From Calditrichaceae bacterium (GTDB lineage Bacteria > Calditrichota > Calditrichia > Calditrichales > JBFXGD01), in contig JBFXLE010000001.1 in the NCBI GenBank assembly GCA_050173015.1, positions 160,001-224,000 on the forward strand: DNA of 64,000 nt, written 5' to 3'. Shown piece after piece: positions 1 to 11,823 of the stretch. Within the stretch, counting starts at the first letter, position 1; the number at the start of each line of letters is the position of its first letter. The position numbers and the translations under genes were made by a program. Under the pieces are notes generated by a model that ran no database searches, was not told the origin of the DNA, and worked only from the letters and a program-made list of their open reading frames with translations.

Positions 1-36
1 CCTTTTGTTGCAAGAGTGATAAATTAATTTCTGGTT

Positions 37-480
37 TTAGAAGGGAAGATCATCCGATTCATGTCCATCGTCCGCGGACGGTTTCTCTGAAACCTTGCTG
101 TCATCCGAAGCAGGTTCATCCTGATATGTGGATTCACTATCACCTTTTGAGCCCAGAAGCTGCAGGTTAAGGGCAATAATCTCGGTTTTGTACTTTTTTT
201 GGCCTTGCTGGTCTTCCCAACTGCTTGTTTGCAGGCGCCCTTCCAGATAAACTAATTTACCCTTTTTTAAATACTCACCGACAAATTCAGCCGTTTTCCC
301 AAAAGTAACGATGTTGTGCCATTCGGTTTTATCCGTCCATGAACCTTCGGCATCCTTTTGGCCGTGATTTGTGGCAACAGAAAAGCTCGCGATTGCAGTT
401 CCGCCGGGCGAATACCGCATATCAGGGTCTTGGCCAAGGCGACCGATGATAATCGCTTTGTTCACAGTTCCTCGTGACAT
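37..480 (-). CDS. ssb: Single-stranded DNA-binding protein
   Basis: VNKAIIIGRLGQDP OB-fold start, TEWHNIV, acidic C-terminal tail DDLPF; GGAGG RBS. Confidence 0.97.
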   Translation of the reverse strand: MSRGTVNKAIIIGRLGQDPDMRYSPGGTAIASFSVATNHGQKDAEGSWTDKTEWHNIVTFGKTAEFVGEYLKKGKLVYLEGRLQTSSWEDQQGQKKYKTEIIALNLQLLGSKGDSESTYQDEPASDDSKVSEKPSADDGHESDDLPF

Positions 481-524
481 GAGTCCTCCAATGTTGGTTT
501 AAATTTGATAGATAGGTTATTTAG

Positions 525-567
525 AAAAATAGCCTCAGAACAGAATAAGACAAGTTCAGAGGCTATT
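525..567 (-). terminator. Intrinsic terminator-like hairpin downstream of the peptide array
   Basis: Minus strand AATAGCCTC-TGAAC...GTTC-TGAGGCTATT followed by TTT; lies between the last peptide gene and ssb. Confidence 0.65.
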
Positions 568-632
568 AAAGTTAAAAAAATTATCAAAAAATACAAGTTA
601 AAATATTTTAATTGACATTTACTTTCCGATCC

Positions 633-788
633 TTAAGGTTTCGGGCGCGGAGGCGGAGGTAAAGGAACAATAGTGGCGAATTCAGCGCCGGATCTTGGGC
701 TTGCATCCGTAGTTGCCGTACTCAGTATGGTCATAAAAATGGCCGCTGCGAAAACGAAGGTTACTATTATTGCTGCAATCTTTTTCAT
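633..788 (-). CDS. 51-aa signal-peptide-bearing, C-terminally proline-rich peptide, copy 1
   Basis: AGGAG-N7-ATG; MKK + hydrophobic core, ends VPLPPPPRPKP-stop; differs from copy 2 only by synonymous changes. Confidence 0.85.
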   Translation of the reverse strand: MKKIAAIIVTFVFAAAIFMTILSTATTDASPRSGAEFATIVPLPPPPRPKP

Positions 789-840
789 GTGATAACTCCT
801 TAAGACAGTGTTGTTGTAATTCATTCAATAAACCGTTTGA

Positions 841-996
841 TTATGGTTTTGGGCGCGGAGGCGGAGGTAAAGGAACAATAGTGGCAAATTCAGCGCCGGA
901 TCTTGGGCTTGCATCCGTAGTTGCTGTACTCAGTATGGTCATAAAAATGGCCGCTGCGAAAACAAAGGTTACTATAATTGCTGCAATCTTTTTCAT
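841..996 (-). CDS. 51-aa proline-rich peptide, copy 2 (protein identical to copy 1)
   Basis: Same AGGAG RBS; 6 nucleotide differences from copy 1, all at third codon positions. Confidence 0.85.
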   Translation of the reverse strand: MKKIAAIIVTFVFAAAIFMTILSTATTDASPRSGAEFATIVPLPPPPRPKP

Positions 997-1048
997 GTGA
1001 TAACTCCTTAATACAGTGTTGTTGTAATTCATTCAATGAACCGTTTGA

Positions 1049-1204
1049 TTATGGTTTTGGGCGCGGAGGCGGAGGTAAAGGAACAATAGTGGCGAATTCA
1101 GCGCCGGATTTTGGGCTTCCGTTTGTTGATGCTACGTCCACAACCGTGAAAACGATTGCTGCCGCAAATACCAATGCGACAATGAGGGAGGCCAACTTTT
1201 TCAT
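1049..1204 (-). CDS. 51-aa proline-rich peptide, copy 3 (diverged N-terminus)
   Basis: AGGAG RBS; MKKLASLIVALVFAAAIVFTVVDVASTNG-SPKSGAEFATIVPLPPPPRPKP. Confidence 0.85.
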   Translation of the reverse strand: MKKLASLIVALVFAAAIVFTVVDVASTNGSPKSGAEFATIVPLPPPPRPKP

Positions 1205-1300
1205 GTGATAACTCCTTTGTTGGGGGTGTGATTTGTATTTATGAAAAGAAAAGTAATTCCGTGAATAGGGGGCTGATAAACAGAAATAGTATGTCATGGA

Positions 1301-1660
1301 TCAGATCTTTCTTACAGCAATTTTGTAATTAAAAGATCCATCTAAAAATTGGGGGCTTCCGTGCGGGTAACAGGTTTAATTGAATAAATTAACTGTTATT
1401 TGAATCATCTCTGAATATTATCAGATCTTCCATACAGCAGTTCTGTAATTTAAAGATCCATCTAAAAATTGGGGGCTTCCGTGCGGGTAACAGGTTTAAT
1501 TGAATAAATTACCTGTTATTAGAATCGTCTCTGATTATTATCAGATCTTCCATACAGCAGTTCTGTAATTTAAAGATCCATCTAAAATTTTAAGGCTTCC
1601 GTGCGGTGAACAGGTTTAATTGAATAATTTACCTGTTAATTGAATCGTCGCTGATTATTA
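1301..1660. repeat. Three tandem 120-bp non-coding repeats, each with two inverted repeats
   Basis: Units 1301-1420, 1421-1540 and 1541-1660 align directly; each has GATCTT..AAGATC and AACAGGT-N15-ACCTGTT dyads (one mismatch in the first unit). Confidence 0.95.
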
Positions 1661-1847
1661 AATGAGTAGGACTAACCGGGATAATACTGCAAATCCAGGT
1701 TCTGTTGTCATGAAATTCAATGATACTGTATCTTTCAGGAAATTGGTTCTGAAGAATTTGGCGGATATCTGAGACGCATGAAAATGTCTGAACGATCAGA
1801 AAAAAAAGTGATATGGCAAATATAATAGGTTTTAGCAGTTCCCGCAT
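1629..1847 (-). CDS. Small hypothetical exported or lipoprotein-like protein (72 aa)
   Basis: GGAG RBS 6 nt before ATG; hydrophobic N-terminus ending TFSC; 3' end runs into the 120-bp repeat. Confidence 0.5.
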   Translation of the reverse strand: MRELLKPIIFAISLFFLIVQTFSCVSDIRQILQNQFPERYSIIEFHDNRTWICSIIPVSPTHLIISDDSINR

Positions 1848-1963
1848 CCCTGTCTCCAGTTGCTTAACGAGAACCTTCCGTGGTTGGATTTGACTTCCCT
1901 GGTGAGCTCAATATGAGCAGTAAAAGTCGAACAGTACGTGAGTCGACATAAATGATTTATAAG

Positions 1964-1991
1964 AATATAATTAATACATGTGAAAATGCAA
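1964..1991 (-). promoter_or_regulatory. Putative sigma70 promoter for the peptide unit
   Basis: Minus strand TTGCAT-N16-TATATT in an AT-rich intergenic region. Confidence 0.45.
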
Positions 1992-2130
1992 TAATTAATA
2001 TCTATATTATTGACATTTTAGTCACTTCCCATAAGCGCATTTAATTTAATTTTTTTATACCGCGGTTAAAACTTTGTTATAAAATTAATATTTTGCTAAA
2101 TTTAAGTCTTTGATCGGATACTACAGGAAA

Positions 2131-2631
2131 ATGGATCTATCTGTGAAAAATAATGAGAATATCTTGGCACAAAGGATTTTAATCACAGGTTTTACGCTGT
2201 TGTCGGTCTGGATGCTCATGTTATCTTTTGCCCCGATGTTAATGAACAGCGGTTCTTATGCGGCGCAGTACGCGGCGACCATCGTATATTTTATGACGGA
2301 TCCTGTTTGTCATCAGCTGCCGGAACGAAGTCTGTTTATTTCAGGAATACCCATGCCCGTGTGCGCGCGTTGCTATTTTATATATCTGGGTGGGTGGACG
2401 ACATTCCTGATCCCTGTTTTTAGCGGGAAAATCAATTTTTGGCGTTACAGAGTATATTTGATCATGGGGATAATTATTTTAGCGGAATTTGTATCTGAAA
2501 AAACCGGTCTTTACCAAAATTTGGCCGGGATACGGATGATCGCGGGATTCTTATTGGGAATACTGATATTCAGATTAATTATTGAAGCATTAAATTTGAA
2601 TGAACAAAGAGGGACAGAGGAAAATGGATAA
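2131..2631 (+). CDS. DUF2085-type membrane protein
   Basis: VCHQLPERSL...PVCARC motif with several TM segments; start approximate. Confidence 0.8.
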   Translation: MDLSVKNNENILAQRILITGFTLLSVWMLMLSFAPMLMNSGSYAAQYAATIVYFMTDPVCHQLPERSLFISGIPMPVCARCYFIYLGGWTTFLIPVFSGKINFWRYRVYLIMGIIILAEFVSEKTGLYQNLAGIRMIAGFLLGILIFRLIIEALNLNEQRGTEENG

Positions 2632-3118
2632 CAGGATTCTATACCAGGGAGCGGTGCTTGGCGGTACCGTGGCGGCTCTGACCGACGCTTTGCCGCTGCT
2701 AAATATTATTAATTGTCTTTGTTGTTTGGGAATTATATCAGGCGGGGTGGTGGCAGTCCTTTTTTACCGTAAAACGGCAGAACCCGAATACAGGGATCTC
2801 AATACGCCTTCCACGGTGCAGCTTGGGTTGATGGCCGGTCTGTTCGGCGCATTTATCTCCTTTGGACTGCAATATATCGTGTTTAAAATAATGGGAAACT
2901 GGCAGATAGAATTGCTGACAAATATGTTTGAAAATTTGGATGAAGTACCGGCTTTATGGGAAAATCTATATGAAGAAATTCAGAAGGAAGAATACCAGGG
3001 TTTTGCGGGAATGGCCATACTCATCCGCTCACTGATTATATTTCCTGTATTTTCTCTGATAGGCGCACTGATTACAAAGCGTTTTATGGGAAGAAAACAG
3101 GAGTCATCGGGTAGTTAA
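2624..3118 (+). CDS. Hypothetical membrane protein with a CLCC motif
   Basis: About 4 hydrophobic segments; overlaps the upstream stop (coupled); GAGG RBS. Confidence 0.75.
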   Translation: MDNRILYQGAVLGGTVAALTDALPLLNIINCLCCLGIISGGVVAVLFYRKTAEPEYRDLNTPSTVQLGLMAGLFGAFISFGLQYIVFKIMGNWQIELLTNMFENLDEVPALWENLYEEIQKEEYQGFAGMAILIRSLIIFPVFSLIGALITKRFMGRKQESSGS

Positions 3119-3126
3119 GAAAGTTT

Positions 3127-4203
3127 CTATTTTTCTGTCGCGACCTCTTCCAGGCGTTCAGAATGATAGGCAAGCCTTAATCCTTCAATCAACTCGTAGA
3201 TCTCACCTTCCATTACCCGGTCCAGCTTGTATAAAGTTAAACCGATGCGGTGGTCAGTAACGCGACCCTGAGGAAAATTGTAGGTTCTGATTTTAGCGCT
3301 TCTGTCACCTGAGCCTACCATGGATTTTCTTTGCGCGGCAATGGTACTGTTATGTTCGGAGATTGCTTGATCCAGTAAGCGGCTGCGAAGCACTTTAAGA
3401 GCTTTTGTTTTGTTTTTTAACTGAGATTTCTCGTCCTGGCAGGAAACCACAATTCCCGTAGGAACATGGGTGATGCGTACGGCGGAATCGGTAGTGTTGA
3501 CACTTTGTCCGCCCGGCCCGCTTGATCTGAAAACATCAATTCTCAGTTCATTGGGGTCAATTTCAATGTCAACTTCCTCCGCCTCGGGCAAAACAACAAC
3601 CGAAACAGCGGATGTATGAACCCGGCCCTGGGTTTCTGTGTCCGGAACACGTTGCACCCGATGCACACCGCTTTCAAACTTGAGTGTCCCATAGGTGCTG
3701 TCTCCCTCAATCGAGAAAATGATTTCCTTAAATCCGCCTCTTTCTGAAGGATTGGAATTCATAATTTCAATTTTCAGTCCATTGGCTTCACAAAATTTAC
3801 TATACATTCGGTAAAGATCGCCGGCAAATATAGCGGCTTCATCGCCACCGGTGCCGGCCCTGATTTCCATAATGGCATTTTTGTGGTCATCAGGATCCTT
3901 TGGAATAAGAAGCATTTTTAATTTTTCTTCGAATTGCTCAATTTGTTCAGACAAATCTTCGAGCTCCGCCTCCGCGAGCTCAATGAGTTCCGGGTCGCTT
4001 TCGCCGGAAATAATACTCTGATTGCCTTCATAATTGTTGAGAACAATTAAGTATGGATCACCGACATCCAGAATTTTTGTAAGTTCCCGATGTTCTCTGG
4101 CGAGCTCTTTGTACCGCGTTTGATCATTATGGATATCAGGATCAGAAAGCTGAATATTCAGCTTTTCGAATCTTTCTTTTATTTTAAGAATTTTATCTTT
4201 CAT
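3127..4203 (-). CDS. prfA: Peptide chain release factor 1
   Basis: GGQ motif (SGPGGQSVN), RVQRVPDTE with the PxT tripeptide of RF1. Confidence 0.97.
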
Positions 4204-4213
4204 GTTGTTACCC

Positions 4214-5224
4214 TTAAAGAGAAGCCGCGATAACTGTTGAACGGATCACAGGATCATTCACCAGGTCACTCTTATAGTCATCCCCGAGCGCGGCCTGCAA
4301 TGCGGCTATGGCTACTTCAAGCTGCTCGTCATCCGGTGGACTGGTTGTGATGCGCTGTAAGCCCAATACCGGAGCGATAAGCGCCTGTACAACAGGATGA
4401 TTTGTATTGTTGGCAGAAGCCTTTAACGCTTCGTAACTCAATCCCCCTACAAAAGGGATCAGGGGCAGATGGGTCAGTATTCTGATCAAAAAATTTATAT
4501 CCCCGTACCACATCATGACCATCGTATCTACAAAAGCAAAAAACAACAGGCTGACAAGCATGACGATGACCAGAAAACTGGTCCCGCAGCGGGGGTGAAA
4601 TGTGGTGTATTTTTGAGCGTTTTCAGGAGAAAGAGTGACTTTGTCCTCAAAGGCAAAAATGGTTTTGTGCTCCGCGCCGTGGTACTGGAATAGTCTTTTT
4701 ATATCCGGCATAAACGAAATGCCCCAGACATATAAAAGAAAAAACAAAATTCTTATCGCACCGGCGGTAAAATTGAAGGTGATGGCCTGTTTCTCGATAT
4801 TGAAGACCACTGTAGTAATATAGAGCGGAAGAACAAAAAAGACGGCCGTTCCAATGAGCAGGGCGATAGAAACCGAAAAAATAGCGCTTAAAGTAGACAT
4901 CCCTTTTTTACCGTTTTTCTTCGTCTTTTTACCTTCTTTTTCTTCTCTCTCATTTATATCTTCCATGGCCTTGTCCGCGGACCATTGAAGTGTTTTGATT
5001 CCCAGAATCATCACCTCAATGAGCATAATCGCGCCCCGGATAATCGGAATATTAAGAATTTTTTTACGCTGCACCAATGACTGATATTCATTGACAAGAA
5101 TTTCAATATTGCCGTTTGCTCTGCGAATCGCTGTGGCGATGCGTTTTGGTGACCGCATCATGACACCTTCAATGACTGCCTGACCACCGACGGGCATTAT
5201 TTTTTCTTCTGACGCCTGATTCAT
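4214..5224 (-). CDS. DUF1385 (YqhQ-like) membrane protein
   Basis: [19 protein letters not shown] and HPRCGTSF motifs; usual rpmE-prfA context. Confidence 0.9.
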
Positions 5225-5250
5225 AAAAATTACACCTTGAAAATTAAACC

Positions 5251-5294
5251 AAAAAAAAACGGAATGATATGGAACTCCATTGCATCCCGTTTTT
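5251..5294 (-). terminator. Intrinsic terminator after rpmE
   Basis: Minus strand ACGGGATG...CATTCCGT followed by a T9 run. Confidence 0.7.
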
Positions 5295-5326
5295 AAATTT
5301 CATATACAACCCTTTGCAGGGGACGA

Positions 5327-5530
5327 TTATTTGCGATTGTATTTCTTCATAAATTTTTCAACACGACCTGCAGAGTCAACCAGCTTTTGTTTGCCGGTAT
5401 AAAACGGATGACAATTTGAACAAATTTCCACTTTCAAATCGCCAACGACTGAGCGTGTTTCAAATGTGTTTCCACAAGCGCAACTCACCGTACCTACTTT
5501 ATAATCCGGATGGATATCTTTTTTCATCAT
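5327..5530 (-). CDS. rpmE: 50S ribosomal protein L31, zinc-binding type
   Basis: [26 protein letters not shown]. Confidence 0.97.
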
Positions 5531-5604
5531 ACACCTCCTAGAGCCCTTGAAATTGAATCTCGTAATATAATATGATTTTTTTGGAATTTCAAGCTCTATT
5601 CATA

Positions 5605-6855
5605 TCAGGAACTCATAGAACGTAAAAATTCTTTATTGTTTTTTGTGTCACGCATCTTGTCAAGCAGGAATTCCATGCCTTCGATGATATTCATTTCATT
5701 GAGAAGTTTTCTCAATATCCAGATACGCGCCAGCTCTTCACGGCTGAGAAGGAGTTCTTCTTTTCTGGTACCCGATTTATTAATATCAATTGATGGGAAG
5801 AATCTTCTATCAGACAGACGGCGGTCGAGAACCAATTCCATATTGCCTGTTCCTTTGAATTCTTCAAAGATAACCTCATCCATTCTGGAGCCGGTGTCGA
5901 TCAAAGCGGTGGCAATGATAGTAAGGCTGCCGCCTTCTTCGACATTACGGGCAGATCCGAAGAAACGTTTTGGTTTTTGTAGCGCATTGGAATCAACACC
6001 ACCGGAGAGAATCTTGCCGCTATGCGGGACAACCGTATTATGAGCGCGGGCCAGACGGGTTATACTGTCTAACAGAATCACAACGTCTTTTTTGTATTCT
6101 ACAAGACGCTTGGCCTTCTCAAGCACCATATCCGCAACCTGAACGTGGCGCTCCGCGGGCTCGTCAAAGGTAGAACTAACAACTTCTGCGTTTACTGATC
6201 TTTCCATGTCGGTAACTTCTTCAGGACGCTCATCGATGAGCAGTACCATTAATTCGACTTCCGGCTGATTTTTAGTAATGGCGTTGGCGATTTTCTGCAG
6301 AAGAATAGTTTTACCGGTTCTCGGCTGGGCGACAATCAGTCCGCGCTGACCTTTGCCGATGGGGGTTAATAAATTCATTATTCGTGTGGAGTAGTCACTG
6401 CGGTCGGTCTCGAGTTCGATTCGCTGCAGAGGATAGAGCGGTGTAAGTGTGTCGAAAAGGTTGCGTGATCTGGCTTTATCCGGGCTTTCAAAATTAACGG
6501 CCTCCACGCGCAATAGCGCGAAGAAACGTTCATTATCCTTGGGGGGGCGAATCTGTCCGCTTACGGTATCTCCGGTTCTTAGCCCAAACCGTTTGATCTG
6601 AGATGGAGATATATAGATATCGTCGGGACCGGGGAGATAACTATAATTTTGTGAACGAAGGAATCCGTAGCCGTCCGGCAAAATTTCCAGCACACCCTTC
6701 GAAAAAATTAATCCTTCCTGAGCTGTCTGCTCTTCTAAAATGCGAAATATCAATTCCGCTTTTTTTAGACCGGAGAATCCGGTTATATTCATATCTTGAG
6801 CAATCTTTGTCAGCTCAGTGATTTTTTTGTCTTTTAATTCTTCAATGTCTAACAT
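5605..6855 (-). CDS. rho: Transcription termination factor Rho
   Basis: [45 protein letters not shown]. Confidence 0.98.
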
Positions 6856-10017: not shown

Positions 10018-11823
10018 ATGTATCAGGATTTAATTAGAAATTTTTGCATTATCGCGCATATTGACCACGGAAAATCAACCCTTGCCGACCGGCTGCTTGA
10101 GTTTACACAGACTATTTCGCTTCGGGATCTGAAAGCACAGGTGCTGGACAGCATGGATCTTGAACGTGAACGGGGAATAACCATAAAATCTCATGCCATC
10201 CGCATGAAATATAAGGCAAAAGATAAACTGGAATATACATTCAATTTAATTGACACACCCGGTCATGTCGATTTTAGTTATGAAGTTTCCAGAAGTTTGG
10301 CGGCTTGCGAAGGTGCGTTGTTGGTCGTTGACGCGGCCCAGGGTGTTGAAGCTCAGACCATAAGCAATCTATATCTTGCAATCGAAAATGATCTTCAGAT
10401 CATACCGGTGATCAATAAAGTTGATTTACCGGGCGCTCAGGTGGAAACGGTAAAGAATCAGATTATAGAACTTATTGGCTGCGAAGAAGAAGAAATACTC
10501 CTGACCAGCGCGAAAAGCGGTCTCGGGGTCGAAACAATCCTGGAAACCATCATAAAAGTGATACCCTCGCCCAAAGGCGACCCGGATGAAAAACTTCAGG
10601 CGTTGATTTTTGATTCGATGTTTGACAGTTACCGCGGCGCGGTTGCCTACATTCGGGTGTTCAACGGGACACTTAAGACCAATGACGCCATAAAATTTTT
10701 CCGCCATCATCATCTCTTTAACGCGGATGAAATAGGTATTCTCAAACTAACCCGCGAACCAGTAAAGGAGCTGCGGGCCGGGGAAGTCGGTTATCTGATC
10801 TCCGGCGCGAAAGATGTTAAAGACACCAAGGTGGGAGATACTGTCACTTTAGCCAAAGATCCCGCTTCAAAGCCGCTCTCGGGGTACAAAGAAGTGAAAC
10901 CGATGGTGTTTTCAGGTATCTATCCTATCATAAGTGAAGATTTTGAGGATCTCAGGGACGCATTGGATAAACTGACGCTAAATGATTCCGCTCTTGTTTA
11001 TGTACCGGAAACATCCAAGGCTCTGGGATTTGGCTTCCGTTGCGGATTTTTGGGATTGCTCCACATGGAAATTGTTCAGGAACGTTTAGAACGTGAATAC
11101 AATTTATCAATTATCAACACCGTCCCGAACGTTGTTTACAAGGTCTATCTGACCAATGGAACCGTTAAAGAAATAGATAATCCCACCGAGATGCCAAATC
11201 AGGGCACGATCGAATATATAGAGGAACCTTATATTTCCGCGCAGATACTGACTCCGCCTGAATATATCGGTAATATTATGAAATTAGGTCAGGAAAAAAG
11301 AGCTATATTTAAGAATACAACCTATCTGGATCCCAGCCGCGCGGATATGCATTTTATGTTTCCGCTCTCGGAAGTCATCTTTGATTTCTATGATAAACTC
11401 AAGTCTCATACACGCGGTTACGCGTCGCTCGATTATGAATTAGACGAATACATGGAAGGGAAACTGGTCAAGCTTGATATCCTTATAAACGGCGAACCTC
11501 TGGATGCTTTGTCAACGATCGTGCATACTGATAAGGCATACGATTGGGGGCGGCGTCTTTGCCGTCATCTGAAAGACCTGATTCCAAGACAAATGTTCGA
11601 AGTGATCATTCAGGCGGCCATAGGGAGCAAAATTATCGCGCGAGACACCGTTAAACCGCTCAGAAAAAATGTGTTGGCTAAATGTTACGGCGGGGATGTC
11701 AGCCGGAAGCGTAAGCTGCTTGAGAAACAAAAAGAAGGAAAGAAACGTATGAAGCAGGTGGGACGCGTTGAAATTCCGCAGGAAGCGTTTCTCGCTGTGT
11801 TATCAATGAACACGGATAAGTAA
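10018..11823 (+). CDS. lepA: Elongation factor 4 (LepA)
   Basis: [38 protein letters not shown]. Confidence 0.98.

Follow-up and report, generated by a model that had tools for sequence, protein, structure and literature searches.

What purpose is served by three 51-codon genes in tandem is the question raised by a locus close to the start of the 64,000-nucleotide stretch of Calditrichaceae bacterium DNA that was analysed here (the window). An initial annotation had described a dosage-amplified exported peptide, and suggested that it could be a Phr/PapR-like signal, a proline-rich antimicrobial-like peptide with a PRP motif, or a precursor modified by enzymes encoded elsewhere. The tandem amplification and the signal-like N-terminus of that proposal survive our analysis, but the Phr/PapR analogy and the PRP motif do not. 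We favour, with a probability of roughly 40%, the explanation that these are dosage-amplified mini-proteins, either Sec-exported or membrane-anchored, which would display a strand-plus-polyproline docking motif in the cell envelope. Readings as Phr-like signals, RiPP precursors, antimicrobials, arrest peptides or type I toxins each appear weaker than this one.

The array and its expression signals

Both the ORF listing and a reading of the strand place three 51-codon ORFs on the minus strand with their proximal ATG starts exactly 208 bp apart, and Tandem Repeats Finder reported a repeat array at 633-1118 (period 208, 2.3 copies, 96% matches). Three such genes at this period, each with its own ribosome-binding site, had been noted before and are confirmed, and the tail DNA does read as four consecutive prolines, as previously stated. 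The features of the locus are as follows.

523-566, minus strand: intrinsic-terminator-like hairpin (529-566) and U-tract (523-528), between copy 1 and ssb
633-788, minus strand: copy 1, type A; 51 codons plus stop, last in the array, profile E 1e-19
841-996, minus strand: copy 2, type A; protein identical to copy 1, six synonymous differences
1049-1204, minus strand: copy 3, type B; hydrophobic N-half diverged, core and tail near-identical
796-801, 1004-1009 and 1212-1217, minus strand: AAGGAG ribosome-binding sites of copies 1, 2 and 3, respectively, 7 nt before each ATG
1300-1660, strand not assigned: 120-bp repeat in three tandem units (92% matches), immediately upstream of the array
1629-1847, minus strand: 72-aa ORF upstream of the array and on the same strand, conserved in the same-genus genome G001 with dN/dS 0.21
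2110-3118, plus strand: overlapping DUF2085 and DUF4199 membrane-protein genes

The hairpin behind copy 1 has 13 pairs, and its region folds with a minimum free energy of -26.2 kcal/mol (z -4.27), which none of 200 shuffles equalled; given this strong terminator hairpin, the array looks like a single transcription unit whose end precedes ssb (37-480). The start regions of the three copies fold worse than shuffles (z +2.1, +1.9 and +1.3), which is consistent with efficient translation of each cistron. A SecM-like hairpin in which the CCUCC-rich proline codons occlude the Shine-Dalgarno (SD) sequence was not found, the RNA between the ORFs being unusually unstructured, and neither a promoter-like site on the opposite strand within 633-1204 nor an Rfam match in window positions 1-6000 at E<=1 was detected. 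The source genome (4.34 Mb, 54 contigs) contains only these three copies: a genome-wide search of 73,718 six-frame ORFs with the family profile returned three matches at E < 1e-17, the next best having E 0.24.

Logan contigs from three runs of one study are broken at every repeat and none spans the array, and they neither confirm nor refute the copy number. In the same runs the A-type unit (window 640-1110) is represented by one 217-nt contig at single-copy depth, and a 51-nt contig of the shared tail has a depth about 2-3 times that of the flanks; those samples may carry a different number of copies from the assembly, which has three.

Each of the 120-bp repeats upstream of the array holds two hairpins, and a single repeat folds with z between -0.8 and -2.0. 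The repeat has no Rfam match and is absent elsewhere in its own genome, while the corresponding position in G001 has two copies, so that the copy number varies within the genus; the repeats are possibly a leader or regulatory element. The 3′ end of the 72-aa ORF overlaps the last repeat. This ORF has a hydrophobic N-terminus and an SIIPVSP stretch and is the best non-family match of the family profile in the window, yet with E 0.22 the match is not significant; it may be a degenerate fourth paralogue.

Hok, Ldr and Ibs are type I toxin membrane peptides, and in type I toxin-antitoxin systems the toxin ORF is translated poorly and is repressed by an antisense RNA that overlaps it or lies close by. 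The array could thus encode toxin-like membrane peptides that are checked by small RNAs, possibly from the 120-bp repeats: the proteins have about 50 residues and one strongly hydrophobic helix, they are encoded in chromosomal tandem copies, and an unexplained structured repeat array adjoins them. However, the SD sequences are strong and the start regions open, the opposite strand of 633-1204 offers no promoter-like site, and no reverse-complementary word of 9 nt or more is common to the repeats and the array. Moreover, the conserved hydrophilic proline core, the soluble three-core relatives and the long-lived synteny described below do not fit such a toxin, and we hold this reading to be highly improbable.

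Selection on the three copies

Comparison of codons confirmed that all six coding differences between copies 1 and 2 are synonymous, an outcome with a probability of about 2.6e-4 under random change; the spacer differs at 2 of 52 positions. It likewise confirmed that copies 1 and 3 agree at 15 of 29 positions of the leader and at 21 of 22 positions of the tail. The initial annotation had taken these patterns as a sign of purifying selection. For the tail of copy 3 this argument does not hold, as its DNA has just 3 differences in 66 nt (dS 0.12) whereas the leader is saturated at silent sites, so that tail conservation within the window reflects homogenisation or recent shared ancestry rather than selection itself.

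Purifying selection is proven instead by the orthologues in G001 and by the family alignment. Between the source genome (G000) and G001, the type A genes show 16 synonymous and 0 non-synonymous changes (copy 1) and 22 and 0 (copy 2), far from the dN/dS near 1 that would speak against selection, and type B shows 12 synonymous and 3 non-synonymous changes. For the neighbouring ssb and prfA genes, dN/dS between the same genomes is ~0.03 and ~0.05, and the dominance of synonymous changes thus implies that the whole peptide, including its hydrophobic N-half, is as constrained as housekeeping genes. These comparisons indicate that the three genes are real, translated and under purifying selection.

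The array of G001 itself is split over two contig ends (L037 9189-9297 and L043 1-260) and seemingly has at least four copies, in one of which Gln replaces the second of the four prolines.

A lineage-specific family in a stable neighbourhood

The proteins have no significant match in Pfam or NCBIfam, only weak N-terminal matches in PHROGs (E 0.002-0.09) and none in PADLOC, which bears out the earlier remark that no family could be recognised. Profile searches recovered 66 proteins at E<=0.01 from 5.8 billion clusters and 62 at E<=1e-3 from 1.84 billion representatives, and the members, where named, are solely 'hypothetical protein' from Calditrichaeota or Calditrichaceae. The best scores in the ESM Atlas (0.79-0.80) are at chance level; a search for longer fused forms of 145-2000 aa, which is weak evidence, found none; and a literature search of article texts returned no paper on these proteins and no described family. 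Two candidate relatives, P0073 (704 aa, 12 stretches) and P0116 (273 aa), were dropped, as they look like unrelated eukaryotic-type repeat proteins.

Of 86 Calditrichota genomes searched for homologues and their neighbours, as the initial annotation had proposed, 20 carry the family at E<=1e-3 with its core conserved, and the remaining 66 lack it. Tandem amplification extends to these relatives, 11 of the 20 carriers having 2-4 adjacent copies. In the complete genome G002 there are four. The carriers are distributed as follows.

Family f1: 1 of 1 genomes, plus the source genome
Family f4: 1 of 1
Family f2: 9 of 10
Family f6: 8 of 10
Family f3 (same order as the source): 0 of 26
Family f7: 0 of 4
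Family f8: 0 of 16
Family f5: 0 of 17

Absence from 66 of 86 genomes of the phylum, including all 26 of f3, indicates that these proteins are not essential envelope equipment.

In f1, f2 and f4 the genes lie directly upstream of ssb and on the same strand in all ten long loci, and downstream of prfA in nine of the ten; further along the same strand, loci of this type carry cdd, udk, tdk, a nucleoside transporter gene and sppA. The neighbours in the window are ssb, DUF2085, DUF4199, prfA, DUF1385, rpmE and rho, the opposite-strand DUF2085-DUF4199 pair separating prfA from the array as an insertion in the window and likewise in G001. This pair also adjoins prfA in G016, a genome without the peptide family. 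In the f3 genome G010, ssb and prfA are still adjacent and the gap between them has no such ORF. In f6, a gene for an HflX-type GTPase adjoins the family genes at 6/6 loci, mostly convergently, and at two of these six a gene for a PAS-HisKA-HATPase-REC hybrid kinase lies directly upstream of the array. The statement that no receptor, transporter or modifying enzyme is adjacent holds for the window and also for the annotated recurrent neighbours at 21 loci; none of the conserved neighbours is an envelope protein, and the analysis yielded no partner. This stable place among housekeeping genes argues for vertical inheritance and for a physiological role rather than a weapon.

The wider window (10018-11823 on the plus strand, 5327-5530 and 5605-6855 on the minus strand) includes genes for a LepA-type factor, ribosomal protein L31, Rho and RF1, a density of translation and RNA genes that is probably ordinary housekeeping synteny.

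Protein architecture and the core motif

Alignment of 41 members revealed a common layout of MKK, about 19 hydrophobic residues, a variable polar linker, a conserved core and a charged, variable tail, so that the signal-like N-terminus and the conserved proline-rich C-terminal module seen in the window are borne out by the family and by its hydropathy. At the N-terminus, M1 and K3 are present in 41/41 members, K2 in 40 and F13 in 37, and an Asn stands at the boundary of the hydrophobic segment in 26. The linker columns carry 0.7-1.7 bits each. The core, of about 10 residues, reads (Y/F)-A-(S/T)-I-(I/V)-P-x-P-P-P, or more narrowly with I or L at x, and F-A-T-I-V-P-L-P-P-P in the window; its initial aromatic residue is found in all 41 members, the following A in 33, and the prolines P42, P44, P45 and P46 in 39, 35, 37 and 33, respectively. 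The tails are often rich in Lys and Asp, and many are acidic or of mixed charge. A second, divergent subfamily, termed 'NLA-tail', occurs at 6/6 f6 loci (L029, L031, L035, L044, L045 and L046) and has a Gly-containing signal end, the motif Y-A-S-T-x-x-P-x-P and a tail with N-L-A; its PPP is reduced to P-x-P, with variants P-x-P-P-S, P-V-P-K and P-M-P-D.

With regard to export, the best 19-residue Kyte-Doolittle mean ranges from 2.0 to 3.0 (mean 2.55) in 99 single-core members, and the MKK of the window proteins is followed by a 19-residue stretch with a mean of 2.77-2.87. On this measure the hydrophobic segment of single-core members is transmembrane-grade, and the proteins may stay anchored in the membrane. 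A PDB profile search, in turn, matched positions 1-18 of the family profile to the bacterial export leader on recombinant Fab chains, which we take to be a classic cleavable Sec signal. Candidate -3/-1 cleavage sites are present, for instance after TDA in copy 1; the SPase I site proposed there earlier is therefore a possible one, but the pattern is not conserved across the members and the segment before it is of transmembrane grade. The topology of the proteins, and whether they are cleaved or anchored, we infer from such sequence features. Another PDB match, to the designed repeat protein 8fjf ('GFASISVPV' repeats), was taken as coincidence. Braun-type lipoproteins carry an invariant Cys in a lipobox that follows the signal peptide; Cys is absent from all three window proteins, which are therefore not of this type.

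The alignment also bears on a secreted antimicrobial, either like a proline-rich antimicrobial peptide or a Sec-dependent bacteriocin. The tail of the window proteins is proline-rich and mildly cationic, the genes lie beside the gene for release factor 1, on which the proposal also draws, and multi-gene or multi-core precursors recall the pre-pro-polyproteins of insect apidaecins (PMC11549390). Proline-rich antimicrobial peptides are Arg/Pro-rich and cationic with conserved PRP-type repeats (PMC11678341). Such Arg/Pro repeats are not conserved here, the R48 column of the supposed PRP motif holding P in 13, V in 6, F in 4 and R in 3 of 41 members, and the many acidic or mixed tails also speak against this reading. 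There is also no immunity or transporter gene next to the array, which occupies a stable syntenic place among housekeeping genes and not a variable island, and purifying selection is strong with the leader included. We place the antimicrobial among the very improbable explanations, somewhat above the toxin.

Could the core act within the ribosome?

The synthetic arrest peptide FXXYXIWPPP stalls ribosomes with little relief by EF-P (PMC7897499, PMC11669330). The window core matches it in length, in the aromatic residue at -9 and in the terminal PPP, and might thus act in the ribosome tunnel, stalling translation at its prolines either in order to regulate or to hold the ribosome while the hydrophobic segment is captured for targeting to the membrane. 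An N-terminal topogenic signal combined with a conserved C-terminal sequence represents two of the four features of monitoring substrates (PMC7897499), and several neighbours of the family are translation genes (prfA, rpmE and those for the LepA-type factor and the HflX-type GTPase). Because the aromatic residue nine positions before the third proline resembles the synthetic motif, conservation of the core could be explained without any binding partner.

Several observations speak against arrest. The genes are not upstream of sec or yidC, the next gene being ssb in f1, f2 and f4 and a convergent gene in f6, and they have no hairpin sequestering the SD sequence. The prolines lie only about 20-27 residues beyond the hydrophobic segment, compared with at least 40 in the known cases, and the family proteins have 51-70 aa compared with 80-200 aa for the known monitoring substrates (PMC7897499). 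In the 51-aa window proteins about 22 residues follow the hydrophobic stretch, where a monitoring substrate has a hydrophilic domain of 40 or more. PPP is not family-wide, being KPPR in the three-core proteins and lost in the 'NLA-tail' subfamily, and the Y at -6, I at -4 and W at -3 of FXXYXIWPPP are replaced by I, P and I/L. We therefore regard arrest as decidedly unlikely.

Less probable again is the specific form in which the core would be a natural EF-P-resistant pause signal related to FXXYXIWPPP, in a mini-protein too short for co-translational targeting. A halt about 22-27 residues past the segment, which we estimate to be roughly one tunnel length, would find the segment just emerged and capturable before release. 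If this were true, a site beside release-factor and ribosome-rescue genes would be no coincidence, and a motif that selection experiments alone have so far yielded would have a counterpart in nature.

Relatives with three cores

Two metagenomic relatives, P0109 (121 aa) and P0112 (120 aa), which were found at E ~4e-4 and are 47% identical to each other, have an ordinary, weakly hydrophobic signal peptide (best 19-residue Kyte-Doolittle mean 0.9-1.2) followed by three cores each. SIFPTKPPR is identical in 6/6 core instances of the two proteins, while the spacers have diverged. The presence of three cores behind one signal peptide identifies the core as the working module, and these two metagenomic proteins, the only basis for the point, indicate that it acts beyond the membrane and needs no anchor itself. 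P0112 is the sole relative of P0109, whose cluster is encoded on a 10.7-kb contig; a search of the phylum's 86 genomes did not recover P0109, and scans of genome and metagenome contigs gave no confirmed match.

Concerted evolution of the core half

Within the arrays, the two halves of the genes have different histories. When paralogues of one genome are compared, dS is saturated in the 5′ half but 0.12, 0.10 and 0.07 in the 3′ half (core plus tail) in G000, G013 and G048, respectively; in G017 the values are 1.3 and 0.375, and in G002 they are 0.5 and 0. Old 5′ halves joined to almost identical 3′ halves are thus found in five independent arrays. Divergence of the 5′ halves at silent sites, set against near-identity of the 3′ halves, points to gene conversion as the main source of the tail identity between copies. 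As a result of this homogenisation within a genome, every copy delivers the same core.

In pheromone and RiPP families it is the product that diversifies. Identity of the core among paralogues is the opposite pattern, and would be expected of a dosage-amplified ligand for a single partner. This bears on the possibility of a RiPP precursor whose modifying enzymes are encoded elsewhere in the genome, which could be imagined from the tandem precursor-like genes and the multi-core relatives, and from the conserved Tyr/Phe that could be cross-linked. Typical RiPPs have a conserved leader and a diverging core, whereas here the core is conserved and the leader diverges; the leader is moreover a Sec-type hydrophobic signal, and no modifying enzyme or dedicated transporter is found among the annotated recurrent neighbours at 21 loci. 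A RiPP is the most improbable of the explanations that we weighed.

The same pattern bears on a released signal, in which the leader would be removed and a proline-rich peptide would leave the cell to be sensed, as in quorum or pheromone systems, by a receptor encoded elsewhere. The layout of leader plus core with tandem amplification would suit such a signal, as would the basic residues that follow each core in the multi-core precursors P0109 and P0112, the weak match of copy 3 to Phr_nterm (E 0.069), and the hybrid histidine-kinase gene directly upstream at two of six f6 loci. However, the match of copy 3 to NCBIfam TIGR04429 (Phr_nterm) scores 13.7 bits against a cut-off of 25, and copies 1 and 2 do not match. 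Phr genes are paired with an adjacent Rap/TPR receptor gene, whereas no TPR/RNPP receptor or exporter adjoins any of the examined loci, and the f6 kinase (PAS, HisKA, HATPase, REC) has no match to an extracytoplasmic sensor domain. Conservation of the core extends across four families, and its paralogous copies are identical instead of being diversified into pherotypes, and the hydrophobic segment of single-core members is transmembrane-grade. Finally, Calditrichota cells are presumably diderm, in which case a Sec product would land in the periplasm, which also argues against release. The sub-threshold score, the missing TPR receptor gene and the identical C-terminal halves together undo the Phr/PapR analogy drawn earlier, and a released signal is unlikely, if the least improbable of the alternatives.

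A proposed docking motif in the envelope

The envelope-docking explanation, which we prefer, would operate as follows. MKK and the ~19 hydrophobic residues would direct the chain to the Sec/YidC pathway, so that the 22-35 C-terminal residues would end up on the periplasmic side, where they would either be anchored by the uncleaved segment (N-in, C-out) or be freed by signal-peptidase cleavage. The ~10-residue core would form a short hydrophobic strand running into a polyproline-II helix, and we infer that it docks onto a putative conserved envelope partner. Tandem genes, or three cores per chain in the two relatives, would raise the dose or valency of this single motif, and through gene conversion every copy within a genome would retain the same core half.

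Small exported and membrane proteins are under-annotated, and the present case is a clean, strongly constrained, lineage-specific family from a barely studied phylum. Its functional module of ~10 residues is unusually clear and has been amplified in two independent ways, as tandem genes and as tandem cores per chain. Conversion of the core half together with divergence of the export half in five arrays makes the family well suited to studying how the dosage of a short peptide motif is adjusted in bacteria, and a partner, if found, would define a new polyproline-ligand interaction in the envelope.

Comparison with known systems

In MgrB-like small bitopic inner-membrane proteins, of about 50 aa, a single N-terminal helix is followed by a short tail in the periplasm, through which a larger partner is bound. 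The window proteins resemble them in size, in the single N-terminal helix and in the short tail; MgrB-like proteins, however, are usually single-copy and have no polyproline core, whereas the present family has arrays with gene conversion and soluble multi-core relatives. The Phr/PapR peptides of Firmicutes are similar in being encoded by small ORFs with a Sec-type N-terminus and a short functional C-terminal part, some in multiple copies. They differ from the present proteins, which belong to another phylum and have no adjacent Rap/RNPP receptor, a conserved and homogenised C-terminal part and a transmembrane-grade segment.

The Sec/YidC monitoring substrates SecM, MifM, VemP, ApcA, ApdA and ApdP share with the family an N-terminal topogenic signal and a conserved Pro-rich C-terminal motif, and the synthetic WPPP arrest peptide shares the aromatic residue nine positions before the third proline (41/41 members here). 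The window genes differ in encoding much shorter proteins with too short a linker, in not preceding sec or yidC and in having no structure that occludes the SD sequence, and PPP is not kept in every subfamily. Insect apidaecin precursors (PMC11549390) likewise make the same short proline-rich unit many times, in repeated units or genes; the proteins described here are by contrast bacterial and not Arg-rich, and conservation falls on Y/F-A-S/T-I and P-x-P-P. Small exported peptides with tandem amplification are a known general kind; what is new is this family, together with its core motif and the way in which it has evolved.
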